Shown here: positions 2,237 to 26,087 of the stretch, piece after piece
How positions within the stretch are numbered: the stretch's first letter is position 1
Layout: every line of letters starts with the position of its first letter
Virus record (IMG/VR): IMGVR_UViG_2617270943_000003
Location: 1 to 53,880 of that record
Origin: a virus
Lineage: Duplodnaviria > Heunggongvirae > Uroviricota > Caudoviricetes
Length of the DNA: 53,880 nucleotides
Reading direction: 5' to 3' (one strand)
Position numbers and translations under genes: made by a program
Notes under the pieces: model-generated
What the model was told of the DNA's origin: nothing
The model's database searches: none
What the model saw: only the letters and a program-made list of their open reading frames with translations

Positions 2237-2668
2237 TCATTGCCCCCAGCGTTTTATAAATTCCTCGTTTAATTTCGTATCACCCGACCATTGAACATCA
2301 TGTTCAGCACCGAACGAGTAGATCAATTCGATTAGTTCGCTGAATTCTGATTTACTCATTCGACTTGTAGACGTTCCCAATACAACGAAGCCTGATTTAT
2401 CTAGGTTAGGGACTACGCCATATTTCTTAAGTCCGGCAGTGAATACCGCTTTCCAGTCTTCCGGCGACAGCTTTTTACCGTACCAATTAACCTGATCGCT
2501 AATGTCGGTCAATAGCGCCCAAAGCAACGCATTTTGGCTTAGCGAGCGGGTTTTCTCCTGGATGGTGATTATCAGCGGGCTTTTGCTATCAGGCTGGATC
2601 TCTCTTATCTGCCTGATAGCATTTTCTTTCACGGCGTCGTTGACTATCTCAAATCTAATTTGCCGCAT
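2237..2668 (-). CDS. ninB: NinB / Orf-family recombination protein
   Basis: MRQIRFEIVNDAVKENAIRQI...TIQEKTRSLSQNALLWALLTDISDQVNWYGKKLSPEDWK...VVPNL...FVVLGTSTSRMSKSEF matches lambda NinB nearly position for position; start taken at the internal Met. Confidence 0.85.
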   Translation of the reverse strand: MRQIRFEIVNDAVKENAIRQIREIQPDSKSPLIITIQEKTRSLSQNALLWALLTDISDQVNWYGKKLSPEDWKAVFTAGLKKYGVVPNLDKSGFVVLGTSTSRMSKSEFSELIELIYSFGAEHDVQWSGDTKLNEEFIKRWGQ

Positions 2669-2882
2669 TATTTCTTTTCGCCTTATTTTTCGCTTTGTAT
2701 TCCTGCCAACTTTCCCAGCGCGCATTTATAATTGCATCAAGACTAATCAATTTTGAAGAAGTCATAAAAGCGCCTTTTAAATATTTCATATCAACCGTAA
2801 CAGGTTTATCAGGATCACCGCCGCGCTTGTATTCCGCGATCGTGCTTAAATCCTCCACGGTCAATTCTAAATCCTTGTTCAT
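2655..2882 (-). CDS. Hypothetical protein
   Basis: 75 aa ORF in the leftward operon, small overlap with ninB start. Confidence 0.4.
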   Translation of the reverse strand: MNKDLELTVEDLSTIAEYKRGGDPDKPVTVDMKYLKGAFMTSSKLISLDAIINARWESWQEYKAKNKAKRNNAAN

Positions 2883-3731: not shown

Positions 3732-5153
3732 TTAAAAGGATGCGTTATTCTGGTTATTTCGTGGGGAGAATCGGCTTGCTGCCGGACGTTGTTGCATTGA
3801 CTGGATGCAGGCGGACGCCGCGCGAGCCTGGTTGCATGGAATGATGTTGCCGTTATCGTCAAACCACTGGTAAACAGTCCCCGTTTTCCCGTGACGGTTT
3901 TTTGAAACGATGATCTCCATGTATTCGCGGGCAACCGATTGTTCGTTGTAGTAGCCGTCGCGGTAGACCATGATGATCCGGTCTGCGTCCTGTTCAAGAT
4001 TACCGGAATCACGCAGATCAGAATTGTTCGGGCGCTTGTTCGGTCGTTCCTCAACGCGGCGGGATAATTGCGCCAGCGCCGCCACTGGCACGCGCAACTC
4101 TTTCGCCATCATTTTCAATGACCACGACAATTGCCCTACGGCGAGATCATGACGTTCGGCCTTAGCCAGCTTCATTAACCCGATGTAGTCAATCATTACC
4201 ATCCCCAGGTTAGGATGGTCCTGTTTCATCCGTTCGACGGTGGCGCGTATTTCCTCGACCGTTAACTGCGATGCGTCAACAATCCACACATCGAGATCGG
4301 CAAGGGCACTCATTCCCTGGGCGACGTGCGCCCAACCTTCGTCATCCAGTTTTACCGGATTACGTAGGCAATCCGTTGATAAGTTCCCAGCGCCAGCGAT
4401 AGCACGTTCAGTCATCTGATCGAGCGACATTTCAAGCGTGAACAGCAAAACGCCGACCCGCTGACCTTCGCCGCCAGGGTATGGACGTTCAGCCGCCGCG
4501 CGGGCAATTGCCAACGCCAACGCCGATTTACCAGACCCCGGACGTCCGGCGATAAGCACCAGATCAGTAGCGTTAATGCCTCCTAACATTTCGTCGAGTG
4601 GGTCAATCCCTGTTTTGATGTTGTCAGAGTTCACGCCACACTCCATGCGTTTACTTAGCACTTCCGTGTACTCCTGTACCGCGTCGCGCAACAGCACCGG
4701 AATAATCTTGTCTTTCGTTACTTTTAATTTTGAATACCGGGAATCAAAATATTTCATCGTCTCCCTGACAGCTTCAAGTGTCCCGGTTTCCAGGTTGTAG
4801 CGTATATCGTCCATCAGTTCCAACATTTGCCGCCGCTGATATTCCTCCTGTAATAGAGCGGCGTACCCCTTAAGGTTGGCAGCAGATGGACACGATCGCG
4901 CCGTTTGCATTAGCGGGACAAAATTTTCGTTACCGATTTCATCACCGACCATCAGAGCGTCAATAAGGTTTCTGTTTCTTGCTTGCGCCCGGATGATCTC
5001 AAACGCTCGTTTATATAGTGGAATGGTGAAGACTTCAGGATCGAGCGTAGCAAGAACATCTTGCGCGTTAGGAGTAAGCCCGCCCAACAGGAGGCCACCT
5101 ATCACGGCCGCTTCCCGTTCCTGGCGTAATGAGTTTATTTGCTCAGTCACCAT
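3732..5153 (-). CDS. Replicative DNA helicase, DnaB family
   Basis: DnaB N-terminal domain (AAVIGGLLLGG...KRAFEI), Walker A GRPGSGKSALALAIA, Walker B VMIDYIGLM, and DnaB C-terminal motifs (SRRVEERPNKRPNNSDLRDSGNLEQDADRIIMVYRD). Confidence 0.9.
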   Translation of the reverse strand: MVTEQINSLRQEREAAVIGGLLLGGLTPNAQDVLATLDPEVFTIPLYKRAFEIIRAQARNRNLIDALMVGDEIGNENFVPLMQTARSCPSAANLKGYAALLQEEYQRRQMLELMDDIRYNLETGTLEAVRETMKYFDSRYSKLKVTKDKIIPVLLRDAVQEYTEVLSKRMECGVNSDNIKTGIDPLDEMLGGINATDLVLIAGRPGSGKSALALAIARAAAERPYPGGEGQRVGVLLFTLEMSLDQMTERAIAGAGNLSTDCLRNPVKLDDEGWAHVAQGMSALADLDVWIVDASQLTVEEIRATVERMKQDHPNLGMVMIDYIGLMKLAKAERHDLAVGQLSWSLKMMAKELRVPVAALAQLSRRVEERPNKRPNNSDLRDSGNLEQDADRIIMVYRDGYYNEQSVAREYMEIIVSKNRHGKTGTVYQWFDDNGNIIPCNQARAASACIQSMQQRPAASRFSPRNNQNNASF

Positions 5154-5171
5154 TATGGTATTGCCTCCTGT

Positions 5172-6290
5172 TTACAAAATGGAATATTCAGGGTAATAAA
5201 CAAAGCGCCCGATCTCCCCGTGATCAGGACTGTAAATTATTACCGCCGCCAGCCGCCGCGACCGCCAGCCGCCATTCGTTGAATAAGCGTCTTTGCCAGC
5301 TAACGTGCCGTGGTACTCAACAACGCCCAACGATGATTCAATCAGCCGTTGGTGATGCCAGTGTCCACAATGAGCGTAAACAGACGACGACTTGCCGAAA
5401 TCCTCCCGCCAGTCAGAAACGCAGGCAGAAAGTAAATTTTCTGGCTTTTTGATAGTGTGCCCGTGGTGGTAAGCAAGAAATGTTTTGCCGTACTGTGTGT
5501 GATGGACGATAGCAGGTGACACATCAACCGTCACACGCGGTTCATCTTCGTAAAAAGCCGCCAGCGCAGCACGTAGCCAGATCATACCTGATTGGTCGTG
5601 ATTACCGGATAATACTTGGATCTCGACATCCTTATGATTTAGTAACATCTTCCCGACCGCACGCCGGACCGACCGGATCGCCACGTAAACAAGTTTTGCG
5701 TAGCGTGAATCACAATCCAAAACGTGATTACTTGATGGCGTCACTGGTAACAGTCCGTCAGTGTGGAGCACATCCCCTCCTAACAGCAAAACAGCTTTTT
5801 CAGACATCGGTGCAGCGCCTACCGCGTAGTCGAAGAAGTCATTTAGCACGCGTTCAGCGATCCCGGTGTCGTAGCTCTCACCGCATTCAGCTTTATGAGC
5901 AAGCGCCCCGATATGCAGATCGAATACCGGATAAAGGGCCAGGCTTTTTTGAAAATCAATTTCCGGCACTGGCACGGCCTCCGCGCGGGGTATTTCTTCC
6001 GTGAAGGCGTCACAAGCAGATTGCATTAGCATTTCCATTTCATCGCGGTCACGGGCTGTTTTAATCCAGCGCATAATCACATTGCCATCCTTATCGACGA
6101 GCAATGACTCAGCATTGACGCCAAAACCCGGTGCGCGGCGCGTGGATATTAAACCGCGTTTCGCCAACCGTGCGCCCAGGCGTTCGACGTTGCGTTTTGC
6201 CATGCCATATTTTTCTGCGATCTGTTTATACGTCAGACCGTTATTATGTTCAGCGATTAACTGTTCATCGCTGATCTTTCTTTGTGACAT
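5172..6290 (-). CDS. HTH domain fused to calcineurin-like metallophosphoesterase
   Basis: N-terminal HTH (LTYKQIAEKYGMAKRNVERLGARLAKRGLI) and metallophosphatase motifs in canonical order: DLH, GGDVLHTD, GNHD, HHGH, GHWHH. Confidence 0.7.
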   Translation of the reverse strand: MSQRKISDEQLIAEHNNGLTYKQIAEKYGMAKRNVERLGARLAKRGLISTRRAPGFGVNAESLLVDKDGNVIMRWIKTARDRDEMEMLMQSACDAFTEEIPRAEAVPVPEIDFQKSLALYPVFDLHIGALAHKAECGESYDTGIAERVLNDFFDYAVGAAPMSEKAVLLLGGDVLHTDGLLPVTPSSNHVLDCDSRYAKLVYVAIRSVRRAVGKMLLNHKDVEIQVLSGNHDQSGMIWLRAALAAFYEDEPRVTVDVSPAIVHHTQYGKTFLAYHHGHTIKKPENLLSACVSDWREDFGKSSSVYAHCGHWHHQRLIESSLGVVEYHGTLAGKDAYSTNGGWRSRRLAAVIIYSPDHGEIGRFVYYPEYSIL

Positions 6291-6451
6291 AACGTTAATT
6301 CCTCCGGTTTACAGAATGTATATTTATTTTCCGTAAAACGCGCTACAACGCAAAAACCCACCGCGTAACCCACTTGTAAGGGTGCAGTGTCTTTTTTGCG
6401 CCAGAAGCGCAATCAGGTGGCTAATTTTCGATTTTTAAGGTAGAAGGGTAG

Positions 6452-6553
6452 TTATGGATTAACTAGTAGATATAAGCCGCCGAACAAGGCGACGTTAACA
6501 GCGATAGCCATCGCGATCGCGAAAGCCAGGGCGAACATGCGTTTACCGTTCAT
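6452..6553 (-). CDS. Putative small hydrophobic peptide (33 aa)
   Basis: MNGKRMFALAFAIAMAIAVNVALFGGLYLLVNP with GAGAGGA Shine-Dalgarno-like sequence upstream; lies in an otherwise ORF-free 350-bp intergenic region. Confidence 0.25.
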   Translation of the reverse strand: MNGKRMFALAFAIAMAIAVNVALFGGLYLLVNP

Positions 6554-6686
6554 AGCTAAATCCTCTCTGAAACGCTCCATAACGAGCTAATCGCAAAAAG
6601 GTAAGCAAGTGTAGCACCCCATGCGATTTAGCTCGCTGGTGAGGTTGTTTTGTGGGTAATTTTGGATTTTTGCGGATCGTAATTGG

Positions 6687-7739
6687 TCAAAGAACGCCAG
6701 CGCGCGTATCACGTAGCGTTTTTGGTTTAAGCAGAAAATCAAGTGTCGCAGTGAAGCCATTGCCGAAGTAAAAATCTGAAGCCGTGTTTTTGAACGTTTC
6801 GAAGTAGGCGACAAAGCCGTTAATGCTTTTGTCTTTCAGGTAGTCAGTGAACGCATAGATCTTGCGTTCAAGATCCCGATCCAGTTCGGCAGGTGGTAAC
6901 AGGCCGTCAAACGTGCTGTTAAATGCTTCCACCACGTCGGCAGCGTTTACAGTAGCTGATAGCTTGCGCCATTGTTCAGCATCAGCCAAATACCCATCAA
7001 ACTTAGTTACCCGGCAAATGTTGATAGGCTTAGGTGTTCCACCACGGCTACGCCATTGCGTTAAAGCCCACTCAATCACTAATGTGATCTCATCCTCCGT
7101 ATACGCTTTACGTGTTTTTGTTTCTGTCAGTAGTTCTACGAATGGCTTAGCATCACGACATTTGCATCCTGCCTTGTCGTTGTAGAAGGCAAGGCAACGC
7201 AATGCCGCTTCGTTTACGCCATCCTGATTGACCATTTTTTGTTCATTTTCGACAATACACGAAGTGTATATATCTTTTTCTCTTTCTTTTTCTACTTCTA
7301 ATTCTAATTCATGACCCTTTCCTGACCCGGTCATGACCCTATCATGACCTTTTTGTGTTGGATTGATTAACTTTTCTAATTTTAATTGCTCCTTCGCTGT
7401 GTTTATGGCGGCCCTGTAAGCGCTTTTAGAAGTCATTGATTGGTCCAGCCTTTTCAATAACTTTAAACAAGTTATGTGGCCTTGAGAACATTCAAACAAA
7501 CCAATTTCGATGAAGTATTTCATCATTTCTTCTATACGTTTTTCAGTAGATCCGACGTTTCGCGCAATTATTCTTGCGTCATGTCGTAGGTCAAAAGTTA
7601 GATTGTGCTGATCTACGTCATAAGTTATTAGTTCTAGGCAATACCAATAAAGCCCGTACCCTTCCAGGCCATAATCTAATAAAACGTTTTGAAGTTTTTC
7701 ATCGCGGTTCGCATCGCTATCATGCTTAAACCACTTCAT
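6687..7739 (-). CDS. Phage replication initiation / replisome organizer protein (DUF4373-like N-terminus)
   Basis: N-terminus MKWFKHDSDANRDEKL...YGLYWYCLEL is characteristic of phage replication organizer proteins; it sits upstream of the DnaB-like helicase in the same operon. Confidence 0.65.
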   Translation of the reverse strand: MKWFKHDSDANRDEKLQNVLLDYGLEGYGLYWYCLELITYDVDQHNLTFDLRHDARIIARNVGSTEKRIEEMMKYFIEIGLFECSQGHITCLKLLKRLDQSMTSKSAYRAAINTAKEQLKLEKLINPTQKGHDRVMTGSGKGHELELEVEKEREKDIYTSCIVENEQKMVNQDGVNEAALRCLAFYNDKAGCKCRDAKPFVELLTETKTRKAYTEDEITLVIEWALTQWRSRGGTPKPINICRVTKFDGYLADAEQWRKLSATVNAADVVEAFNSTFDGLLPPAELDRDLERKIYAFTDYLKDKSINGFVAYFETFKNTASDFYFGNGFTATLDFLLKPKTLRDTRAGVL

Positions 7740-8303: not shown

Positions 8304-8951
8304 ATGAAAACAAAATGGTATGACTTAGCAAAGCAGCTCATGCGGGCGCAGGGCATGAGTCAGGATTCACTCGCAGATCTCATGGGGATAACTAAAGGCG
8401 GCCTGTCACACTGGCTTAACGGTCGCCGCGAGCCAAATCTTGAAGATATTGCGCGGATTATGCGGGCGCTTGGGCGTCGTCAGTTCACTGTTACACATGA
8501 TGGTATGGTCATTGATGATTCTGTTTCTAATACACTTCAGGCCGCACCGCCGCGTGATTTAGGTAGTTACCCGGTTATTGACTGGAAGGACACAGTAAAC
8601 AATATGGATGACACAAGGCGATCAGCATTACCACACGTTACGACTAGCGTTATTTGTTCAGATGATAGTTACTGGCTGGTTGCCAAAGGTGAATCAATGA
8701 ACGCGCCGCAGGGGTTGAGCATCCCGGCGGGGACGATGATACTTGTTGACCCGCACGCGCCAGCTATTGACGGCAAACTGGTTATAGCCCAGCTTGAGGA
8801 AGGGCAGATACCGACGTTTAAACAGTTGATTATTGATGGAGGTCAAAGGCTTTTACGTTCGCTCAATCCGCTGTATCCGCCAATCCCTATGAATCCAGAA
8901 TCAAAAATTATAGGCGTGGTGGTTGATGCGAAGATCGTAAACCTGCCATAA
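8304..8951 (+). CDS. cI: CI-like prophage repressor (XRE HTH + LexA/S24 peptidase domain)
   Basis: N-terminal HTH (MSQDSLADLMGITKGGLSHWLNGRREP) and C-terminal S24 autopeptidase motifs (AKGESM, catalytic Lys in VVDAKIV). Confidence 0.9.
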   Translation: MKTKWYDLAKQLMRAQGMSQDSLADLMGITKGGLSHWLNGRREPNLEDIARIMRALGRRQFTVTHDGMVIDDSVSNTLQAAPPRDLGSYPVIDWKDTVNNMDDTRRSALPHVTTSVICSDDSYWLVAKGESMNAPQGLSIPAGTMILVDPHAPAIDGKLVIAQLEEGQIPTFKQLIIDGGQRLLRSLNPLYPPIPMNPESKIIGVVVDAKIVNLP

Positions 8952-14408: not shown

Positions 14409-14948
14409 ATGAAAAATGATTACGGCGGCAGCCATACGCCGAAAGAAATAAAAGACTTATGGCAAACGCCAAAACCCGTTTTTAGAGGAATGGATCGAGA
14501 ATTCGAGTTCGTCGCGGATGTGGCGGCAAACAAGGCAAACGCATTAATACCGCGATATATAACCGAAGAAATGGACACGCTGCATTATCCGTGGGGAGCG
14601 GTGGCGATGCCTGGTGAGTATGTCTGGATGAATCCGCCATATTCTAATCCGGGGCCATTCGTTGATAAGGCGGCGCTTGAACATCAACGAAATCACATTG
14701 GCTGTGTAATGCTATTGCCCGCTGACATTTCTGTTAGCTGGTTTATGAACGGCGTGGAGACGGCAAACGAATGCCGATTAATTACGCGCGGGCGGCTGGC
14801 GTTTATCAATGCTGCGACGGGTAAACCAGCAAGCGGAAACAATAAAGGGAGTTTGTTCTTGATCTGGCATCCACGATGCAGACATGAATGTATTTTCACG
14901 CAGATAACACGTAAAGAGCTATATGCAAGAGGTGCAGAAAATGAGTAA
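14409..14948 (+). CDS. dam: Phage DNA N6-adenine methyltransferase (Dam-like)
   Basis: Catalytic NPPY motif (WMNPPYSNP) and overall resemblance to the phage N6-adenine methyltransferase family. Confidence 0.75.
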   Translation: MKNDYGGSHTPKEIKDLWQTPKPVFRGMDREFEFVADVAANKANALIPRYITEEMDTLHYPWGAVAMPGEYVWMNPPYSNPGPFVDKAALEHQRNHIGCVMLLPADISVSWFMNGVETANECRLITRGRLAFINAATGKPASGNNKGSLFLIWHPRCRHECIFTQITRKELYARGAENE

Positions 14949-17633: not shown

Positions 17634-18031
17634 ATGAATATTCTTTTAGCCTGCCTTACCCGCCATCGAATAATCGCTATTACCGACATTCGCGCGGTTT
17701 TCACTATATCAGCAAAGTGGGGAAGGAATACAGGGAACAAGTAAGAGACATCATCGAGCTATTAAATTTAAATATTAACCTACCTTGCCGACTGGCAATT
17801 GCCATTTACGCCGCGCCGCCGGATAACCGGATCAGAGATCTGGATAATATCCCTAAATGCCTTTTTGATAGCCTTACTTATGCCGGATTCTGGACTGACG
17901 ACGGACAAATCGACTCAATAAAAATTGTGCGCTGCCGGAAGGTAAAAGGCGGGCGATTGTTTATCAAGGTACGCGAACGCGGCGACCTGCTACCGGATAT
18001 TGACGAATACGCGACCAATATGTGGGGTTAG
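17630..18031 (+). CDS. rusA: RusA-family Holliday junction resolvase
   Basis: LPYPPSNNRYYRHSRG...DLDNIPKCLFDSLTYAGFWTDDGQI resembles RusA endonucleases. Confidence 0.8.
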   Translation: MNEYSFSLPYPPSNNRYYRHSRGFHYISKVGKEYREQVRDIIELLNLNINLPCRLAIAIYAAPPDNRIRDLDNIPKCLFDSLTYAGFWTDDGQIDSIKIVRCRKVKGGRLFIKVRERGDLLPDIDEYATNMWG

Positions 18032-18033
18032 CA

Positions 18034-18216
18034 ATGAAAAACGAAGTTAAAGATCTGCAAATAGATATTCAGCGCGACGAGCGTGATTTAGAGACGGTCC
18101 GACAAATCCAGGCTTTCCACATGCGCGAATTACTTGCGCTGAAAGAGTTTGAAAGAAAGCTGGTGCAATCCATTTCTGATCGTAAACGCCTTATTGCTCG
18201 TTACGGGGGCAAATAA
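18034..18216 (+). CDS. Hypothetical coiled-coil protein
   Basis: 60 aa ORF following rusA. Confidence 0.4.
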   Translation: MKNEVKDLQIDIQRDERDLETVRQIQAFHMRELLALKEFERKLVQSISDRKRLIARYGGK

Positions 18217-18944
18217 TGAATTTAGAATCCATTCTAAAATTCCACTTTCCTAAATCACCGCGATTATCTGACGAAAGCCGGGGCACGTCCCCGGACGCTC
18301 TTAATACAACGGATGCGCTAACCGCTGCGGGTATGGCGCAATCGCGCGTAGAGCTTGGATATAGCGCTTTTTTAGGGAAGATGGAACTATCACAAGCCGA
18401 AAAACACAGGGCCGTAGTTTTGCTTACAGAGCGTTTAAGAGCTATGGCGAAAGATTACGAATACGTGATGGAATTAAATGAAGAACAACGAAATGATCTT
18501 ATTATTCTTGTTGCCGTTTTCGCGTTTCGGGATTACTGCCAGAGTGCCGCGACCGAAAAGGTTTGCCCTAAGTGCGGCGGTAACGGGCTTTTACCAAATC
18601 CATATTGTGAATACACATCGACAGTTTGCTCGCGGTGCAACGGCAAAGGCTACGTTAAGAACCATTGCCAACGTTGCAAGGGGCGCGGCGAAGTACCGGA
18701 TAAAGCAGCCAGCGAAGCGGCGGAAATGCCAGTATTCAAAACGTGCCAGCATTGCGGCGGGCGCGGGTACTCGCGTTTCCCTGTAGATCTCGTCCGGCAG
18801 GCTGTTAACCAGCTTGTTTTCCCTGTAAGCAGATCAACATGGTGGAAGAAATACCGGGTTTTCTATGAAGACGCCATAGCGGAGCTATTCAAAGAAGAAG
18901 CCCGCGCGGAAAGCGAAATTAAACGAGTGACACGGGGTGAATAA
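18216..18944 (+). CDS. Q: Late-gene antitermination protein Q-like (zinc-finger CxxC repeats)
   Basis: Repeated CxxCxGxG motifs (CPKCGGNG, CSRCNGKG, CQRCKGRG, CQHCGGRG), located after ninG-rusA as in lambdoid phages. Confidence 0.65.
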   Translation: MNLESILKFHFPKSPRLSDESRGTSPDALNTTDALTAAGMAQSRVELGYSAFLGKMELSQAEKHRAVVLLTERLRAMAKDYEYVMELNEEQRNDLIILVAVFAFRDYCQSAATEKVCPKCGGNGLLPNPYCEYTSTVCSRCNGKGYVKNHCQRCKGRGEVPDKAASEAAEMPVFKTCQHCGGRGYSRFPVDLVRQAVNQLVFPVSRSTWWKKYRVFYEDAIAELFKEEARAESEIKRVTRGE

Positions 18945-19144
18945 TGGACAAGTTAGAAATAAACGATCAGTTTGCCGTTATCTTATTTGAAGATAAAACA
19001 GGCGGCGCATGGTGTAAGAAAGTCACTGGTGCGGAAGCGCGTTTAATATTGGGTATGGCGAGCGCGTTAAACGAGGGCGAATTGCCCGCCATCCCTGTTA
19101 AGCCAGTCAAAATATACAAACGGGGTGACGATGATGAAGCCTAA
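18944..19144 (+). CDS. Hypothetical protein
   Basis: 66 aa ORF. Confidence 0.4.
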   Translation: MDKLEINDQFAVILFEDKTGGAWCKKVTGAEARLILGMASALNEGELPAIPVKPVKIYKRGDDDEA

Positions 19145-19403
19145 ATTAAAAGAACATCTATTTGCAAAGCTGGTCAATAACCTGACATTAACGGCGCGTG
19201 TGTGCAGTGATACGCAACAATTAAGGGCGTGGATAGCAAGGGATTTAAGAAAATACATTGAGCCAGGCGGACCAGGCGACGAAATGACTATGGACAAGGC
19301 CATCAAGCGCCGTTCGGCTGAATGGTCAGTGAGTAACACTGGATTAACCGGATACATTGAAGGCTATAACGACTGTTTACAGGATCATAGCGATGGCAAG
19401 TAA
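19125..19403 (+). CDS. Hypothetical protein
   Basis: 92 aa ORF. Confidence 0.4.
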   Translation: MTMMKPKLKEHLFAKLVNNLTLTARVCSDTQQLRAWIARDLRKYIEPGGPGDEMTMDKAIKRRSAEWSVSNTGLTGYIEGYNDCLQDHSDGK

Positions 19404-19698
19404 AGACCTGCATTTGAATCTGAAAGGGGAATATTTCCACGCTATCCGTGCGGGAAAGAAGGTGGAGGAATACCGGCTTTATAATGATTATTGGCGTAAA
19501 CGCCTGGAAGGGCGGGAATATGAACGTTTGTTCATTAAATGGGGTTATCCAGCAGGACACGAAGAACACCGGATTATAGACCTACCTTATTTTGGCTATG
19601 AAGTGAAAACGATCATACATCCGTTGTTCGGCCCTGATCCTGTTAAGGTATTCGCAATTAAATGTGATGTGAATTGGATGCTAAGAGGTGAAAAATGA
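19393..19698 (+). CDS. Hypothetical protein
   Basis: ORF 19357-19698; start at MASKDLHLNL. Confidence 0.4.
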   Translation: MASKDLHLNLKGEYFHAIRAGKKVEEYRLYNDYWRKRLEGREYERLFIKWGYPAGHEEHRIIDLPYFGYEVKTIIHPLFGPDPVKVFAIKCDVNWMLRGEK

Positions 19699-19907
19699 AA
19701 AGTAACCGTAAGCGCCTTGTAAGGGCATACGACAAAGCATTAAAGGCTTTTGATGATCTGCGACGCAATAAGCGCCAGCGCCGCAAATGGGCGCGAATGC
19801 TTGTTAGTGAATGGCATAACGAAGATTTCTTTCTGGAAGCGCGGCACATGACGCAAGAAGACGCGGATCAATTAGCTTACGATAACGTTTACTATATGAT
19901 GTGGTGA
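19695..19907 (+). CDS. Hypothetical protein
   Basis: 70 aa basic ORF. Confidence 0.4.
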   Translation: MKSNRKRLVRAYDKALKAFDDLRRNKRQRRKWARMLVSEWHNEDFFLEARHMTQEDADQLAYDNVYYMMW

Positions 19908-19911
19908 TAAT

Positions 19912-20277
19912 ATGCAAATAATCATTGATTACCTTTGCCACGCTGCAAATACAATTTTCGGTATGTATCAACAACCGTTTCTCAAAGAATGGGATGATAT
20001 GCTAAACGACATCCTCGACAAAGGATTAATAATGGAGGTTGACGAGCTTACAATCAGATTTAATTATGAAGGTGAAGAATATCTAATTTGGGTGGGTAAT
20101 AGATGGTATTCATACGGTCATATTTATTCAATTGGTGGTAAGTTCATTAAAAGAAACCAGGAATTCAGACCGCGCTTCCGCACAATGCGCCGCCTGCATG
20201 ATCTGCATATGAAGTTATTCGAAGATCAGGAAGCACGGGAATTATTCAAAATTTACGGGGATAAATCATGGAGCTAA
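19912..20277 (+). CDS. Hypothetical protein
   Basis: 121 aa ORF. Confidence 0.45.
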   Translation: MQIIIDYLCHAANTIFGMYQQPFLKEWDDMLNDILDKGLIMEVDELTIRFNYEGEEYLIWVGNRWYSYGHIYSIGGKFIKRNQEFRPRFRTMRRLHDLHMKLFEDQEARELFKIYGDKSWS

Positions 20278-20498
20278 AAATCTGGCAGGCTATCGACGTA
20301 GTTGATAATGAATTATCTATGTTTGCCACTGACGGAAAGCGCGTGGCGATCGCTACATGGACGCGCTTGCATGACGATATCACTTTTCGCCGCAAAGTTG
20401 CCGAGGGTCTTTTCTCTGATGGCGGCTACACGATGAATATCGCACAGCTTGCCAGGATGAAGGATGAAAAGCTGGTAGACAGCTACACAACTGCATAA
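20268..20498 (+). CDS. Hypothetical protein
   Basis: 76 aa ORF. Confidence 0.4.
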   Translation: MELKIWQAIDVVDNELSMFATDGKRVAIATWTRLHDDITFRRKVAEGLFSDGGYTMNIAQLARMKDEKLVDSYTTA

Positions 20499-20508
20499 CG
20501 GGGTAAAT

Positions 20509-21033
20509 ATGCGTATTTATGAACACAAGCGGGATAAAACCCGCTTTTTTGTTCGTGCTGGCGTAGCGTACCAGTATCACGAATGCGGATATATTGAGGC
20601 GCTTGCTTACGACCTGGATTTCGAACAAGAAAAGGCATGGTTCGATTTTAAAATTTACCGTAAGCGCAAACCAACGCGCGACGAGCGCCACGCTATCCGG
20701 GACTTTTTAATCAGCATTGACCGCTGGGGGTACAGAGTAATGAGAGCGAAGAAAATGGCAGACAAGAAAGCGTTAGTTATTGCCACAACGGATGTATCGT
20801 TATTTACGAAGGGCGAAGAAATAGATCTTAAATTGCTTTTTGGTATGTTTGAGCCACACGAAAAGCCGTGGTTTGTTCATGAAGACAAACAAGGAAATAT
20901 GCGCGTTGTAGTGCCGGACAAAAACAGCGACATATTTTTTGCTATTCCAGACCCATTACATGACGGTGAAATGCTGGCGGTATTGTTGGTCACTGATGCT
21001 GTCACTTACAAGGGAAAGAAATATGAAAGTTAA
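20509..21033 (+). CDS. Hypothetical protein
   Basis: 174 aa ORF. Confidence 0.5.
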   Translation: MRIYEHKRDKTRFFVRAGVAYQYHECGYIEALAYDLDFEQEKAWFDFKIYRKRKPTRDERHAIRDFLISIDRWGYRVMRAKKMADKKALVIATTDVSLFTKGEEIDLKLLFGMFEPHEKPWFVHEDKQGNMRVVVPDKNSDIFFAIPDPLHDGEMLAVLLVTDAVTYKGKKYES

Positions 21034-21250
21034 ATTCTTGCACGATCACGGCTACCCGTCATTGAAACAGGTTGTTGGTAAGGTCGTTAATGTCGTTCAT
21101 AGCGATGATGTTACTTGCATGATTAACGGTGCTGATCTCATTGCCGCTGGTGCTGATGACCATTACATCAATCCTGCGTGGTCGTATACGTTCAGCCTGG
21201 GCGACTTCGTGGGCGACAAGGGGCGCGGGCTGCAAGTGGTAGAGGGTTAA
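21023..21250 (+). CDS. Hypothetical protein
   Basis: ORF 20939-21250; start at MKVKFLHDHGY (21023). Confidence 0.4.
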   Translation: MKVKFLHDHGYPSLKQVVGKVVNVVHSDDVTCMINGADLIAAGADDHYINPAWSYTFSLGDFVGDKGRGLQVVEG

Positions 21251-21254
21251 TATC

Positions 21255-21470
21255 ATGGACGTTTACGAAGATCTATACCTTCAGACAAATACCCGCACTT
21301 TTTATTTTCTGAAAAACGGCGTCGTATATCGCAGCGATGACGGGGTAATAATGAAGGAATGGTTATTTAAGCGCAAAGACCTACTGGAAGATCTTGTCTT
21401 CGCCGGGATATTCCGTAAACGTCCGGCTAACATTGAGGAAGAAATGTTGATCGACGAGGTATTAAAATGA
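21255..21470 (+). CDS. Hypothetical protein
   Basis: 71 aa ORF. Confidence 0.4.
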   Translation: MDVYEDLYLQTNTRTFYFLKNGVVYRSDDGVIMKEWLFKRKDLLEDLVFAGIFRKRPANIEEEMLIDEVLK

Positions 21471-21718
21471 AAGTGAAAGTGAACTATTTCAGAGCAAAAG
21501 ACAAGGCAACAGGGAAACGGGTAGTTATCCTGGTTAATGAGGCCAATTATATGTTTGTTCTCCAGCCGTGGTGCATAACTGACTATAACGATGATTATCG
21601 CCGTCATGCAGCGCGGCGGGCGGTCGGCATGAAAGGCTGGCAACCGCGCGACATGGAAAATTATTGCGACTGGAAACTGATAGCAAAATACACGGTCGAT
21701 TATAAAGGTATCTTCTGA
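21467..21718 (+). CDS. Hypothetical protein
   Basis: 83 aa ORF. Confidence 0.4.
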   Translation: MKVKVNYFRAKDKATGKRVVILVNEANYMFVLQPWCITDYNDDYRRHAARRAVGMKGWQPRDMENYCDWKLIAKYTVDYKGIF

Positions 21719-21734
21719 TTTAAGGTGATTGCCT

Positions 21735-22559
21735 ATGAAACATCAAGTAATATCGTTCAGTGGCGGAAGGACTTCTGCTTACATGACTCTAGAGGTATTG
21801 AAAATTCACCATGACGCAGAGGTCATCTTTATGGATACAGGGGCTGAACACCCCAAAACATACGAGTTTATAAAGAATTTAGCCTCACACTTCAACATTA
21901 AAATAACTTGCCTCCGCTGCGTTCCTCCTGCAATTAAATACGGTAAATTCAGTTACGAGATCATTGGTATTGATGATGTAAAATATGACCTTGTTCCGTG
22001 GCGGAGAATCCTGGAACATTATGGTCATCCTTATATCGGCGGGGCATTCTGTACTCACAGGATGAAACAGCTACCTTTTGAAAAGTATTGTGATGAACAC
22101 TATGGCAAAGGCAATTACGAACGCTGGTTAGGTATTAGGGCAGATGAGCCACGCAGACTACACGAAAGGGAGGGTTTTCACTATCTGGCAGATATAAGTG
22201 ACTTTGAGAAGCAGGATATTATTGATTGGTGGTCAGGGCAGCCATTTGATTTAGAGATCCCCGAACATCTTGGTAATTGTGTTTTCTGCATTAAGAAGAG
22301 CAACAAGAAGTTGGCATTGGCAGCAAGAGATGAACCTGAACTATATGACCAGTTTTGTAGTTGCATTGCAGAGCATGATTGCAAGGAAGGTAAGCCGGAA
22401 ATGTATCGCAACAAAATGGCATTGCAGGACGTAATAGCGTTGTTCAGACTGGAGGAAACAGAAGGGATACGCAGCAGCATTATTAACAAGAAAGAGTTTG
22501 GTTCAGGCAGTTGTTCTGAAAGCTGCGAGGCTTTCGCTTGTGATAATAACGTGATCTAA
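21735..22559 (+). CDS. PAPS-reductase-like PP-loop ATP pyrophosphatase family protein
   Basis: PP-loop motif ISFSGGRTSAY near the N-terminus and a C-terminal Cys cluster (CSESCEAFAC); ATG at 21735 with AAGGTGA upstream. Confidence 0.6.
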   Translation: MKHQVISFSGGRTSAYMTLEVLKIHHDAEVIFMDTGAEHPKTYEFIKNLASHFNIKITCLRCVPPAIKYGKFSYEIIGIDDVKYDLVPWRRILEHYGHPYIGGAFCTHRMKQLPFEKYCDEHYGKGNYERWLGIRADEPRRLHEREGFHYLADISDFEKQDIIDWWSGQPFDLEIPEHLGNCVFCIKKSNKKLALAARDEPELYDQFCSCIAEHDCKEGKPEMYRNKMALQDVIALFRLEETEGIRSSIINKKEFGSGSCSESCEAFACDNNVI

Positions 22560-22644
22560 ATCACAAAGTATACAAAATGGCATTGTTCAGGCAGTGCCGT
22601 TTTGTTATATGTAAGCCACGGAAAGACGGAGGGGAGGCAAGAAA

Positions 22645-22785
22645 ATGAACGCTAACGCTAAATATCCGGCATGGGTTTTTGAGTTATATGCCCGCTACTT
22701 TGAATTGCTGGCACCAGGTGAAGAAGCATTAAGCATTGACGAATACGCGGAGTGTTTGGGGTTCAAAGGAGGCAAAGAAGGATAA
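22645..22785 (+). CDS. Small hypothetical protein (46 aa)
   Basis: MNANAKYPAWVFELYARYFELLAPGEEALSIDEYAECLGFKGGKEG; strong GGAGGGGAGG Shine-Dalgarno-like sequence upstream. Confidence 0.35.
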   Translation: MNANAKYPAWVFELYARYFELLAPGEEALSIDEYAECLGFKGGKEG

Positions 22786-22828
22786 AGCACGGGGTCGGAT
22801 GGCTCCATCAAACCAGAAGGGTTGAATC

Positions 22829-23128
22829 ATGAAAAGCGATAAATTCATAGCGTGCTGTTTTGTTGAAGTGCCTAAAGGTGATGTTTTCTGTAATTACGAA
22901 TTTAAAGACAGTTTAGGCCGATCTCATGTTGTTGTTGGTAAACGAGGCGATTGGTTATATATAACAGACGACGACATGATTTTTACCAAAAATCAACTAT
23001 TTTACATCAACTCAGTAAATAATTATGCGCCAGTTGCCGCTATATCCATGATGGATCTTAAATCTAATATGTGGCTTGAAAAGGACACTGTGCATAAAGC
23101 GCGTAGCTTACCTGGTGCGGAGTTTTAA
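22829..23128 (+). CDS. Hypothetical protein
   Basis: 99 aa ORF. Confidence 0.45.
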   Translation: MKSDKFIACCFVEVPKGDVFCNYEFKDSLGRSHVVVGKRGDWLYITDDDMIFTKNQLFYINSVNNYAPVAAISMMDLKSNMWLEKDTVHKARSLPGAEF

Positions 23129-23130
23129 TT

Positions 23131-23388
23131 ATGGTTGTGTTCAGGCTATGGCGCGGTGTAAGTCGTACCGATGGCACGTATAGCCGCGTGATTGAAGATG
23201 TTAACCGTGGCCGTTTTTATGAACTGGCATACAGGGAGGGAATGGAGAATACATATTTTGATGAGTCAATCCCTATGTGGCGGAAAATAGCTGGTGAAAT
23301 AGCTTTCGTTGCTCGCTACGGTACTTATAAAGATCACAACACGCTAACGGATGCCGAACTGGTGGCAATTCTTTACGAAGGAGAATAA
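23131..23388 (+). CDS. Hypothetical protein
   Basis: 85 aa ORF. Confidence 0.4.
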   Translation: MVVFRLWRGVSRTDGTYSRVIEDVNRGRFYELAYREGMENTYFDESIPMWRKIAGEIAFVARYGTYKDHNTLTDAELVAILYEGE

Positions 23389-23391
23389 CAA

Positions 23392-23715
23392 ATGTCTAAA
23401 TTTATCAGCGTTAAGGTTTTTCGTGGCAATTTTCCAGAAGATAAAGAAATTGGACAATTCGCAGGTGAACGTGGCGTATGTTTCCGTGTAGCTACTGAAG
23501 ACGATGCGCACGTTAAATGCTTTCACGTATCTGAACCGCCTTTTAATGCAGACCATCTTGAAGACCTGAATAGAATTAAAAGCCTTATTTTTGCCTATCT
23601 GGCGTTCCCTGGCATAGCTAATGCTGATGTGGGATTGGTTGGAGCTGAACTAGTGGCAGAATATAAAATGACTGAAGGAGAAGAAGGGGGAATTAAAATT
23701 GAGCGCATCAAATAA
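23392..23715 (+). CDS. Hypothetical protein
   Basis: 107 aa ORF. Confidence 0.45.
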   Translation: MSKFISVKVFRGNFPEDKEIGQFAGERGVCFRVATEDDAHVKCFHVSEPPFNADHLEDLNRIKSLIFAYLAFPGIANADVGLVGAELVAEYKMTEGEEGGIKIERIK

Positions 23716-23953
23716 GGTATACAAAATCAGGTGTAAAGGCGAATACCCTGGCTTTACGATTGGTTGCGAATATATGGGCCGCATTGGGTACGGCCCTTTC
23801 GGTGAATTAGGGATGAATACGCTGGACGACGACGGCGACAGCAGGACGCTTGATCTCGATTCTGATGATTTCGAATACATCCCGCCAGTAACTTGCCGCG
23901 TAGTTGATGAGTTCCTGGCTGAACATGAAGACGATGAGGATGATTATGATTGA
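23699..23953 (+). CDS. Hypothetical acidic protein
   Basis: 84 aa ORF with non-ATG (TTG) start and AAGGGGGA upstream; acidic C-terminus. Confidence 0.35.
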   Translation: MSASNKVYKIRCKGEYPGFTIGCEYMGRIGYGPFGELGMNTLDDDGDSRTLDLDSDDFEYIPPVTCRVVDEFLAEHEDDEDDYD

Positions 23954-24140
23954 ATGCCTTATTGCTGTGACTGTTTTGCTTTATATCGCTGGCGCGATCT
24001 TGATGTCATGTTTTATTAAGGTTAGTGAGGCTGACCGTTGCGGATTTGAGATCCCTTTTTGGCCTGTATTGGTTTTTCTCGCTTTCTTTGATGTTACGGT
24101 AGTGCAGATCAAGCGAGCCATTAAGGAGCGCAAGAAATGA
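23940..24140 (+). CDS. Small membrane protein
   Basis: MIMIECLIAVTVLLYIAGAILMSCFIKV...FWPVLVFLAFFDV: two hydrophobic helices. Confidence 0.4.
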   Translation: MIMIECLIAVTVLLYIAGAILMSCFIKVSEADRCGFEIPFWPVLVFLAFFDVTVVQIKRAIKERKK

Positions 24141-24319
24141 TTGAAGATGGGGTGTACGCAGCAACAGTAGTCGACAGGTTGTTTTACCGCGTGGAAGGTG
24201 ATGATATTCGTATCCGTGTTGGCGGTGGCGGGTGGGTAGCGCCAATCATTAAGACGACGCGAGAAACAATTAAAATATTTCTTGATGCTGGTGAACTGGT
24301 AAAGGTTAGCGACCTATGA
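24137..24319 (+). CDS. Hypothetical protein
   Basis: 60 aa ORF. Confidence 0.35.
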   Translation: MIEDGVYAATVVDRLFYRVEGDDIRIRVGGGGWVAPIIKTTRETIKIFLDAGELVKVSDL

Positions 24320-24492
24320 ACGAGATCGAAGACGGTATGTATTTTCATAAGGTATTTGACATCGCCTATTTGGTAAGAGGCGAAGAGGTGATGATAAGGA
24401 ATGAAGATGTTCCTTATTGGGAATTAAGCGACATGGATCGCGAACACATGCAAACATTGCTTGATAACGGACTGATATACAGAACTGCGTAA
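24316..24492 (+). CDS. Small hypothetical protein (58 aa)
   Basis: MNEIEDGMYFHKVFDIAYLVRGEEVMIRNEDVPYWELSDMDREHMQTLLDNGLIYRTA by manual translation; stop/start overlap with the upstream gene. Confidence 0.3.
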   Translation: MNEIEDGMYFHKVFDIAYLVRGEEVMIRNEDVPYWELSDMDREHMQTLLDNGLIYRTA

Positions 24493-24500
24493 AGCCGTAT

Positions 24501-24529
24501 TTGTGGGTCGAAAACAAGCAGATTAAAAT
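24501..24529 (+). promoter_or_regulatory. Candidate late promoter (TTGTGG-17bp-TAAAAT) upstream of lysis cassette
   Basis: -35/-10-like hexamers with 17-bp spacing, immediately upstream of a strong hairpin terminator, resembling a PR'/tR' arrangement. Confidence 0.35.
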
Positions 24530-24557
24530 ATTACCTAACAATGCGAAACTGTAACTA

Positions 24558-24580
24558 CCCGGCCCCGCGCCGGGTTTTTG
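24558..24580 (+). terminator. Rho-independent terminator upstream of holin (tR'-like)
   Basis: GC-rich hairpin CCCGGC-CCCGC-GCCGGG followed by TTTTT. Confidence 0.6.
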
Positions 24581-24599
24581 CTTTGTTGGAGGAAAATCT

Positions 24600-24800
24600 A
24601 TGTTCGACAGAATACGGGAGGCGTGTGCGTATGTGACTGGGGCCGTAACTGCTTTTTTCGGCGCGATAACCATCAATGACATTGCCGTCTTTGTGGGTAT
24701 CTTATCAACCGTAGGCACATTTGCCGTTAATTATTACTTCAAATCACAGGAGAACAAGCGAGCGCAAGAGGAACACGACGCGCGAATGGGGAATAAGTAA
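24600..24800 (+). CDS. Holin (pinholin-like, two TM domains)
   Basis: 66 aa, two hydrophobic segments and charged C-terminal tail, immediately upstream of a SAR lysozyme. Confidence 0.7.
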   Translation: MFDRIREACAYVTGAVTAFFGAITINDIAVFVGILSTVGTFAVNYYFKSQENKRAQEEHDARMGNK

Positions 24801-25292
24801 ATGATTAGCCAATCGCTGAAAAACAAGATTGTTGCGGCGGCGGCTGGTGGGGCGATCGCTATTGCGGCGGTGATGATTAAGCCATTAGAGGGCGTGGAAC
24901 ACGATCCCTATCGTGATGTTGTAGGTGTATGGACTGTTTGCTACGGTCACACCGGGAAAGACATCATGCTTGGTAAGACTTACACGCAATCAGAATGCGA
25001 TGCTTTGTTAAATAAAGATCTACACAAGACCGCAAAAGCGATTGACCCATATATCAAAGTCGAAATATCAGATTTTACCCGCGCTGCACTTTATTCCTTC
25101 GCCTATAACGTAGGCGCAACCAACTTCAAAACATCAACCTTATTAAAGCTACTCAATGACGGCAGGAAATCGGAAGCGTGCGCACAGCTTAAACGCTGGG
25201 TATACGCTGGCGGTAAGAAGTGGCAAGGCCTGGTAAACCGCCGCGATGTTGAATATGCCGTTTGCGAATGGGGGGAAACGTGGACAAGGTGA
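24801..25292 (+). CDS. Endolysin, phage lysozyme (GH24) with N-terminal signal-anchor-release domain
   Basis: N-terminal weakly hydrophobic Gly/Ala-rich segment [18 protein letters not shown] followed by the lysozyme catalytic region (E...D...T: [23 protein letters not shown]). Confidence 0.85.
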
Positions 25293-25750
25293 AGGCGTTA
25301 ATTATCGCCGCTGTTGTTTGCATTATTGCCGGACTTACCGCCGTAACGTGTTATTACCAGGGGGAAACGGCAAGGTTACAGGAAGAAGTCACGGTGACGA
25401 AAGGCGCACTGAAAACGGCAAGTAACACTATTCAGCAGATGAAGGAGCGAAACGCCGAACTGTCAAAACTTGATAAGAGGTATCACGATGAGATTAAAGC
25501 TATCAGATCTGACATTGCCGATCTGCGCACTGGCATTGATAACGGCACTATCAGGCTGCGCGTCAACGCAATACCCGTGCGAGTGTCCGACTCCGCCGAA
25601 TCCGCCAGCCGCATTGATGGAGCCTCCTGTAGACTCACTCCCGACGCTGAATCGGCTTATCTATCCCTCAGAGAACAACTAAAAGAGAAAGATGCGAAGA
25701 TAACCGCGCTTCAGGGCTACATCAAAACACAGTGCTTACGCAAAGAATAA
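25262..25750 (+). CDS. Rz: Spanin, inner membrane subunit (Rz-like)
   Basis: N-terminal TM helix then coiled-coil periplasmic domain; overlaps lysozyme 3' end; contains embedded Rz1. Confidence 0.7.
25488..25682 (+). CDS. Rz1: Spanin, outer membrane lipoprotein subunit (Rz1-like), embedded in Rz
   Basis: Lipobox ITALSGC and Pro-rich mature region ([17 protein letters not shown]), entirely within Rz in another frame. Confidence 0.7.
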   Translation: MRLKLSDLTLPICALALITALSGCASTQYPCECPTPPNPPAALMEPPVDSLPTLNRLIYPSENN

Positions 25751-26087
25751 CAGCGCGTGGACGTGTCGCCGTTTCCGCCAGCCAGCCATAACCGGGCCAA
25801 TCCTTCCCGCGAGCGACGGCGGAAATTCAAAAACACGTAATACCGGATCAACAGTCCCATTAACAGGTCAGGCGCTACCTGGGTAGAAGAAAGCGCCATC
25901 AACTCACCTGCCATGCGTAGGATGAGCGTTCGGATCTGTTTACCAGAGATGTTAAGCAGATCCAGTTTTATAAAATTCTAAAAACGGTACTCACTCAGCG
26001 CCGTTTTTAGTGTTTTATAGCTGTTTTCACTCCCTGCGGTGTCCAGTTTTGCGGGGGTTATATTTTTCAGGATAGAGGAATATTCTG

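Follow-up and report, generated by a model that had tools for sequence, protein, structure and literature searches.

A NinC-family PP-loop protein encoded by a one-gene cassette of a temperate coliphage, and its tentative link to DNA modification

The stretch of DNA analyzed here, hereafter the window, comprises positions 1 to 53,880 of the IMG/VR virus record IMGVR_UViG_2617270943_000003. It stems from a coliphage that is temperate and belongs to the mEp021 / mEpimmI group. On its plus strand, at 21735..22559, lies a gene for a protein of 274 amino acids (aa), a type of protein that carries the database label 'PAPS reductase family'. Judged by full-length homology, this gene is an ortholog of ninC of phage lambda and an ordinary member of a named family, and its product is a NinC-family PP-loop ATP-pyrophosphatase-like protein. 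Despite the label, NinC is not a sulfate-assimilation enzyme; a role in the modification of phage DNA is the explanation that we tentatively prefer.

The reading frame of ninC opens with an ATG at 21735 and closes with a stop at 22559. Its translation begins MKHQVISFSGGRTSAY (also given as MKHQVISFSGGRTSAYMT...) and ends ...GSGSCSESCEAFACDNNVI. A mechanical call placed the start at the TTG at 21729, two codons 5' of this ATG. The ATG is backed by the N-termini of homologous proteins and by a Shine-Dalgarno-like AAGGTG (21722..21727, plus strand), read from the sequence 7 nt before it. If compared to a 95% identical copy in an Escherichia coli prophage contig, ninC shows a ratio of nonsynonymous to synonymous substitution rates (dN/dS) of 0.11. 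Thus the gene is intact, functional and under purifying selection. The stop of the preceding open reading frame (ORF) of 83 aa (21467-21718) is located only 16 nt from ninC, and scanning the sequence revealed no promoter-like site directly upstream of the gene. Consequently, ninC is probably co-transcribed with this preceding ORF and the run of small ORFs.

Both the identity as a NinC ortholog and the PP-loop fold discussed below are close to certain. Lambda NinC (lambdap64, NP_040635, 290 aa) shares 45% identity with the window protein in a BLASTP comparison (E 4e-88; residues 5-268 of the window protein against 4-278), and since this match is full-length and includes the C-terminal GSCSESCE, we regard both proteins as orthologs. 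PHROG 33262 matches the protein from end to end (E 4.4e-91), PHROG 424 does so with an E value of 3.4e-63, and the motif set of the family (SGGRTS, DTGxEHP, FC(T), GNCxxCxKK and a C-terminal CxESCE) is complete. The family is large: one search delivered 4,127 clusters at 90% identity (E up to 1e-5), another one 1,519 representatives at 50% clustering, and tblastn matched 546 phage records among 50,697 phage genomes, in which the gene is often annotated NinC. A near-identical DNA match for ninC was not found by megablast in these 50,697 records, and ninC is absent from the sequenced mEp021-group relatives of this phage, while an E. coli prophage protein that is already annotated is 95% identical to window NinC. 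Many representatives of the family (P0125, P0128, P0129, P0131 and others) match the query in two stretches, with approximately 60-70 extra residues near query position 143-150, and the alignments suggest that these residues form an inserted domain in a subfamily. Lambda NinC itself is non-essential and without known function (PMC10695390), and the literature that names NinC together with phage gives no function either.

The conservation of cysteines was determined over 122 near-full-length representatives with a mutual identity of no more than about 50%, that of other residues in an alignment of 75 diverse family members. The PP-loop S7-F-S-G-G-R-T-S14 is encoded at 21753..21776 (plus strand), and S9, G10, G11 and S14 are each at least 90% conserved. 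A nucleotide-binding segment, DTGxEHPxTY, is present as well, and K111, G133, R135, D137, E138, R141, N181 and K188 are invariant. Three cysteines in the body of the enzyme are 100% conserved: Cys106 of GGAFC-T (codon 22050..22052, plus strand), which follows an invariant phenylalanine, and the pair Cys182-x-x-Cys185 of GNCVFC (codons 22278..22289, plus strand). The best solved-structure match of the NinC family profile is chain C of PDB entry 21fy, 'PptA' (270 aa, E 6.6e-8); the Cys106 motif aligns to its 'AACTTQLK' and the Cys182/Cys185 motif to its 'NCVGCVK'. Based on this conservation, we propose C106, C182 and C185 as putative ligands of a metal or of an iron-sulfur (Fe-S) cluster. Sulfur transferases that depend on a [4Fe-4S] cluster likewise combine a PP-loop with three cysteines. 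Judged from the fold match, the single cysteine and the CxxC of NinC may lie at roughly the positions of the CC...CxxC Fe-S ligands of APS reductase.

An earlier inspection of the letters alone, hereafter the sequence-only reading, had pointed out the PP-loop motif SGGRTSA and a C-terminal cysteine cluster, CSESCEAFAC, both of which can indeed be read in the translation. From this cluster, only the CxxxC pair Cys260-SES-Cys264 (codons 22512..22526, plus strand) turned out to be a family trait, with C260 conserved in 93% and C264 in 96% of the representatives and the pair being kept in lambda NinC as well as in p0018 of a Vibrio phage, whereas C269 is found in no more than 15%. Two further cysteines of the window protein, C59 and C119, are likewise restricted to a part of the family (C119 in 35%). 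The CxxxC pair is part of a disordered C-terminal tail, to which we tentatively assign a mobile role in sulfur relay or catalysis; CysH and APS reductases, too, work with a cysteine tail that moves. Nevertheless, the cysteine triad in the enzyme body is the more telling signature if compared to the C-terminal pair.

The sequence-only reading had further stated a resemblance to the PAPS-reductase/PP-loop superfamily, and this was borne out by the profile searches, the predicted structure and the comparison of folds. The AlphaFold2 model (68 homologs) reached a mean predicted local distance difference test score (pLDDT) of 86.7 and a predicted TM-score (pTM) of 0.86, while residues 257-274 are disordered with a pLDDT below 50. 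Its SGGxxS loop is positioned between the first strand (residues 3-8) and the first helix (12-24) of a Rossmann-like alpha/beta/alpha fold. Among solved structures compared by Foldseek against the PDB, CysH and APS reductases rank first, yet with TM-scores of only 0.4-0.5 (1sur, 2o8v, 6vpu, 2goy), and a fold search in BFVD returned only other viral proteins labeled 'PAPS reductase' and QueC. On the level of sequence, the Pfam profile PF01507 (PAPS_reduct) matches with 37.9 bits against a cutoff of 22.5 (E 2.4e-9), but solely over residues 5-61. Together with the matches to PHROG 33262 and 424, this confirms the PP-loop ATP-pyrophosphatase fold; the cleavage of ATP to AMP and pyrophosphate with adenylation of a substrate is predicted.

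In contrast to the fold, the name PAPS reductase did not withstand closer comparison. All curated models of CysH and APS reductases scored 19-30 bits against cutoffs of 154-254 (NF002537, 29.6 against 154; TIGR00434, 22 against 165.1; TIGR02057, 19.2 against 254.2; TIGR02055, 23.6 against 235.3). Thus we rejected a genuine PAPS reductase. An hhalign comparison of the family profile with E. coli CysH gave a probability of 87%, restricted to residues 1-138. If residues 96-207 were searched alone against the PDB sequences, no matches were obtained, and hence there is no sequence alignment of the cysteine motifs to APS reductase.

Which systems does NinC then resemble? Among defence-system profiles, that of SspD is closest to the window protein (PADLOC; E 1.2e-14, 52.7 bits, residues 4-241 against 2-227 of the 277 profile positions), a significant match, but one in a library that comes without curated cutoff and with a score far below those of the family's own PHROG profiles. 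BrxP matched weakly (E 1.4e-4), and lambda NinC reached DndC profiles with E values of 0.004-0.006 only. Partner genes of the SspA/B/C, DndA/B/D/E or type 4 BREX kind did not turn up in the window proteins that were scanned, and ssp partner genes (sspA/B/C, sspE or sspFGH) are lacking in the typical nin-region context as well. NinC therefore resembles SspD without being a member of an Ssp, Dnd or type 4 BREX system.

A second line of evidence connects NinC to DNA methyltransferases. We surveyed 80 IMG/VR loci, which are phylogenetically non-independent, so that the fractions are descriptive only. A methyltransferase was fused to or adjoined NinC in 28 of these loci, namely 12 fusions to Dam, 11 separate Dam ORFs that directly abut ninC, and 5 fusions to a D12-class N6-adenine methyltransferase. 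At least four fusion architectures exist (Dam-NinC, NinC-Dam, NinC-D12 methyltransferase and C5-methyltransferase-NinC-D12), with Dam PF05869, D12 PF02086 and C5 PF00145 as partner domains. The most elaborate arrangement is a protein of 1,099 aa, encoded at 4396-7695 of locus L076 (IMGVR_UViG_2890773813_000005), in which a C5-cytosine methyltransferase, NinC and a D12-class N6-adenine methyltransferase are joined in a triple fusion. Since diverse representatives comprise both the Dam-NinC and the NinC-Dam order, several independent fusion events must have taken place. The window itself encodes a Dam-type DNA N6-adenine methyltransferase as a separate gene (14409..14948, plus strand; PF05869, E 1.4e-51), and because numerous other phages have a Dam domain fused to NinC or encoded beside it, this enzyme is a candidate functional partner of NinC. 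A second methyltransferase-like gene at 15913-16677 matches phrog_757 (E 1.1e-87) without any Pfam match; both methyltransferase genes are located in the nin-like region of the phage. GATC occurs at 274 sites of the window, compared to about 207 expected, and is therefore not depleted.

Only one member of the NinC family has a reported phenotype. Protein p0018 of Vibrio phage 44E38.1 (QZI91755) is a NinC-Dam fusion of 479 aa, annotated as 'Dam methyltransferase with PAPS reductase domain', and its gene adjoins p0019 (DUF6475), whereas the window encodes NinC and Dam by two genes with a distance of 7 kb. Window NinC shares 53% identity with the entire NinC module of p0018 (E 3e-94; residues 4-267 against 3-277), including the CxxxC tail, while the window Dam and the Dam half of p0018 share 38% identity (E 3e-34). 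Podophages of Vibrio crassostreae that overcome the Dnd system of their host differ from sensitive relatives by p0018 and p0019, and if both genes were moved together into a sensitive phage, it infected a Dnd-carrying host (bioRxiv 10.1101/2021.05.05.442762). A Dam with 96% identity to that domain of p0018 was already present in the sensitive phage (bioRxiv 10.1101/2021.05.05.442762). Consequently, the gain is attributable to the PAPS domain and/or p0019. This preprint of the Le Roux laboratory was published as Piel et al. 2022 and is cited as anti-Dnd in PMC13551039; it describes the phenotype without a mechanism (bioRxiv 10.1101/2021.05.05.442762). When we searched the literature for phage PAPS reductases acting against Dnd or other defences, this was the only work found.

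With regard to the surroundings of ninC, an 8-kb query from the window showed 85-90% DNA identity, over 54-82% of its length, to mEp010, mEp554, mEp021 and MagusPhagus; the mEp021 group has been described in PMC11893012. The gene order starts with an integrase, a leftward operon (NinB, DnaB, exonuclease, O-like protein), the repressor, Erf, Dam and the second methyltransferase-like gene, and continues with NinG, RusA, Q, about 20 small ORFs, holin and lysozyme. Q (18216-18944; phrog_127, E 1.6e-79) is located upstream of ninC, while the holin gene begins at 24600 and the lysozyme gene at 24801. The sequence-only reading placed ninC at the end of a long run of small genes of unknown function after Q. 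Such a run exists: most of the ORFs between Q and holin were scanned, and every scanned one matches PHROGs of unknown function or none at all. Its end, however, is not marked by ninC, as approximately eight further small ORFs follow before the holin. One member of the run, an ORF of 174 aa at 20509-21033, joins PHROG 30442 (residues 1-74) and PHROG 33175 (residues 78-171), which are two genes in relatives, and comprises a terminator-like hairpin (20527-20546) inside its 5' end.

Within this run ninC forms a clean mosaic cassette of a single gene (21721..22549, plus strand), because the homology to relatives breaks on both of its flanks and other ORFs lie in between there. In a blastn comparison of window positions 18000-26000 against mEp010 (L003) and MagusPhagus (L004), DNA homology ends at 21719/21720, just past the stop of the preceding gene at 21718, and restarts at 22550/22551, about ten bases before the stop codon of ninC. 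The cassette itself has no DNA homology in either phage, and its exact site is occupied in both by small ORFs unrelated to it. At the same site, ninC is harbored by contig L005, an E. coli prophage, and by a contig from IMG/VR that represents this phage type.

The usual order among the 80 loci is O/DnaB, NinB, NinC, NinG and Q, with a cI-like repressor upstream and lysis genes downstream, and NinB directly precedes NinC in 16 of them. Since this usual setting is the lambdoid nin region between the replication genes and Q, the location of window ninC behind Q is atypical; as the deviation is positional, membership in the protein family stands. The position is the only unusual feature of this ninC. 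A NinB/Orf homolog is encoded at 2237-2725 (minus strand) in the leftward operon with DnaB, the exonuclease and the O-like gene, far from NinG, RusA, Q and NinC. Therefore the 'nin' genes of lambda are dispersed in this phage group.

Directly after the stop codon of ninC follows a terminator-like hairpin of A-tract, stem and U-tract (22568..22610, plus strand; RNA folding energy -21.1 kcal/mol, z -4.15). The sequence-only reading had noticed it as an inverted repeat, and it is real, with arms at 22572-22585 and 22592-22605 and a motif, TACAAAATGG, that is over-represented in the window (23 sites within one mismatch compared to 5.5 expected). A simple terminator scan made no terminator call for 22568-22610, while the counterpart in mEp010 (L003 4966-5010, mapped by blastn) is annotated as predicted Rho-independent terminator T8. 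We rejected the idea of an element specific to ninC, as the hairpin lies in a flank common to relatives without the gene. A second hairpin, GC-rich, strong, terminator-like and followed by a T-run, is found at 24557-24575, 25 nt upstream of the holin, and bears the annotation terminator T9 in mEp010. The late unit that depends on Q may actually begin here, in which case the approximately 20 genes after Q, including ninC, would be early and not late.

The 5' arm of the hairpin behind ninC is one copy of a longer motif of 14 nt, AGTWTACAAAATGG (22567-22580), of which the window contains 6 perfect copies and 13 within two mismatches compared to 1.08 expected. Copies are located at 5169, 8217, 9060, 16678, 16747 (minus strand), 22567, 38990/39016 (minus strand), 42362 (minus strand) and 44249 (minus strand), and three of the pairs are inverted, with 6, 16 and 55 nt between their members. 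The repressor gene (8304-8951) has one copy on either side, and one pair lies in the intergenic region between methyltransferase and NinG, the reported location of nutR2 in mEp021. MagusPhagus and an IMG/VR relative have conserved the motif at the same place. It might serve as a binding site for a protein, in the manner of an operator, or as a stem element in RNA.

What might be the function of NinC? The best overall explanation, to which we would give slightly less than even chances, is that of a PP-loop enzyme which makes a sulfur-containing mark on phage DNA and serves in counter-defence. Given the association with methyltransferases in 28 of 80 loci and the 53% identity to the anti-Dnd-implicated p0018, we infer a DNA-modification counter-defence role similar to SspD/DndC. 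That the mark is phosphorothioate in particular is rather unlikely. The suggestion of the sequence-only reading, DNA or nucleotide modification, fits to the repeated methyltransferase fusions and to the one published phenotype. In our scenario, NinC would bind ATP and adenylate a nucleic-acid substrate, that is, a position on DNA. The cysteine triad would hold a metal center, for which a [4Fe-4S] cluster of the kind present in APS reductase, TtuA, NcsA and Fe-S LarE is the most likely candidate and a zinc ion the alternative, while the flexible CxxxC tail would receive persulfide sulfur from IscS or another cysteine desulfurase of the host and pass it on to the activated substrate. Replicating phage DNA would thereby acquire an SspD/DndC-like phosphorothioate or a related sulfur mark. 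Dam (14409-14948) may help or direct NinC by assisting its engagement with DNA, and progeny genomes would in this way escape defences of the host that depend on modification, for example Dnd/Ssp-type systems. One might even speculate that NinC proteins are minimal DNA sulfur-insertion enzymes, in which a single PP-loop/Fe-S protein, guided by an adenine methyltransferase (fused to it or encoded separately) and fed by IscS of the host, does without DndD/E or SspB/C; such an enzyme, which could equip phage DNA with phosphorothioate or else with a thio-base not described before, appears unlikely.

Several points weigh against a DNA-modifying NinC. Biochemical activity has been demonstrated for no member of the family, and the Fe-S assignment is deduced from the conservation pattern and from structural neighbors. 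The profiles of DndC (PADLOC, NCBIfam) did not match the window protein at E values up to 1. Known phosphorothioation depends on partners of DndD/E or SspB/C type, and among the window proteins scanned neither these nor a cysteine desulfurase were found. No methyltransferase lies beside the NinC gene in 52 of the 80 loci. The window lacks a homolog of p0019, while the Vibrio phenotype was obtained by the transfer of two genes together; furthermore, the Vibrio NinC is fused to Dam, whereas the Dam of the window is encoded 7 kb off. Finally, lambda can do without NinC under laboratory conditions (PMC10695390), which fits to a counter-defence role without demonstrating one.

Among the rival explanations, two hold up best, both of which we judge improbable. 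First, NinC might confer counter-defence without modifying phage DNA, either as a decoy or competitor of SspD/DndC-type proteins of the host, by diverting sulfur from the modification machinery of the host, or through an adenylation that inactivates a defence component or signal of the host. The resemblance to the SspD profile would agree with this scenario, as would a published anti-Dnd phenotype that comes without mechanism and the position in a variable accessory region, where anti-defence genes cluster according to a general statement in PMC13551039. However, the PP-loop, the catalytic-type residues and the five cysteines are strictly kept over more than 1,500 diverse representatives, which points to an enzyme and not to a decoy, and the covalent fusions to active-looking DNA methyltransferases point to DNA. 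In addition, it can be reasoned that blocking the modification of the host would leave unmodified phage DNA open to restriction of the DndFGH type.

Second, the substrate might be RNA or a free nucleotide, for instance in the thiolation or a different ATP-activated alteration of a tRNA of host or phage, as known from TtuA, NcsA, TilS, MnmA and ThiI, or in a step toward a modified nucleotide precursor as performed by QueC. This possibility, which we rate no higher than the first, has to face fusion partners that are DNA methyltransferases and a closest defence profile, SspD, that represents a DNA phosphorothioation enzyme. Moreover, an RNA-binding domain such as THUMP or PUA was not seen, and genes of the 7-deazaguanine pathway were not found among the window proteins scanned.

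A role in recombination, replication or repair, such as that of the nin neighbors NinB (Orf) and NinG (Rap), is suggested by typical lambdoid loci, in which the gene directly follows ninB (16 loci) and precedes ninG and Q. We nevertheless consider it very improbable, given that window ninC stands apart from NinB, NinG and RusA, alone among accessory genes after Q, that its fold gives no hint of a nuclease or annealing protein, and that the association with methyltransferases is stronger evidence than an operon neighborhood. The least credible explanation, with next to no chance in our view, is a genuine assimilatory PAPS/APS reductase, that is, an auxiliary metabolic gene (AMG) raising the supply of sulfite and cysteine in infection: although PF01507 exceeds its gathering score, CysH and APS reductases are the nearest solved structures by Foldseek and hhalign reports 87% for the 138 N-terminal residues of the alignment with E. 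coli CysH, the curated thresholds were failed, an ECGLH motif is missing, the similarity ends at about residue 140 with an empty PDB search for residues 96-207, and the methyltransferase fusions contradict it.

Taken together, a PP-loop enzyme that marks phage DNA with sulfur is preferred here as a tentative, yet testable hypothesis. NinC is among the few lambda genes that are still without function after decades of study, and its family is routinely mislabeled in virome studies as a sulfur-metabolism AMG. The failed PAPS-reductase tests, the signature of three cysteines plus CxxxC and the methyltransferase fusions sharpen the hypothesis of DNA modification in counter-defence, and the same three results argue against counting NinC-type genes as sulfur-cycle AMGs. 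If the minimal sulfur-insertion enzyme should prove true, lambda-like phages would possess a self-marking disguise against modification-sensing defences, lambda ninC would gain a function, and a new way of making a DNA modification would come to light. Beyond the sequence-only reading, our analysis adds the orthology to lambda NinC, the cysteine triad, the rejection of PAPS-reductase status and the location of the hairpin in a conserved flank. For the window itself the result is modest, an ordinary NinC ortholog that was shuffled as a one-gene cassette into the accessory region after Q; neither the corrections nor the hypothesis on NinC are specific to this window, and the family was known and named already.

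If NinC is compared to known systems, PptA of PDB entry 21fy shares the PP-loop segment and the motifs C-T-x-x-L-K and N-C-V-x-C-x-K, and its relatives are short ORFs in phage contigs (e.g. L006 6001-6345). However, it is distant and aligned in three short stretches only; an ORF neighboring a PptA relative had no PDB match, and literature searches found no publication describing PptA. The [4Fe-4S] PP-loop sulfur transferases TtuA (5mko), NcsA (6scy) and LarE (8cnz) are 10-17% identical to NinC. They act on tRNA or on a nicotinic acid cofactor and are devoid of methyltransferase fusions, and in NinC the corresponding Fe-S cluster is a prediction.

CysH resembles NinC in its N-terminal nucleotide-binding half, including DTG...ETY, and in a flexible C-terminal tail that bears cysteine. 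Past about residue 140, in contrast, sequence similarity is undetectable. The loop of CysH is degenerate (SSSFGIQA), whereas NinC of the window comprises the canonical ATP-type SGGRTS, and in place of the catalytic ECGLH tail of CysH (...KRECGLHEG in E. coli) the window protein, which ends ...GSCSESCEAFACDNNVI, carries GSCSESCE. With SspD, DndC and BrxP, which are the PP-loop ('PAPS reductase') members of the DNA phosphorothioation systems Ssp (acting on single strands), Dnd and type 4 BREX, respectively, NinC has the PP-loop ATP-pyrophosphatase core in common. In enzymes of the SspD/DndC/BrxP type, cysteine pairs are thought to relay sulfur (PMC10853773). While these enzymes are located in a defence island of the host, NinC is phage-borne and either stands alone or is fused to a methyltransferase. 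The closest comparison remains lambda NinC itself: SFSGGRTSAY with the PP-loop, DTGxEHPxTY, GGAFCT, HLGNCxFCIKKS and GSCSESCE are common to both proteins, and both are encoded by non-structural accessory genes, with the difference that lambda has its ninC upstream of Q, flanked by ninB and ninD within the nin region, whereas the copy of the window is found approximately 2.8 kb downstream of Q.

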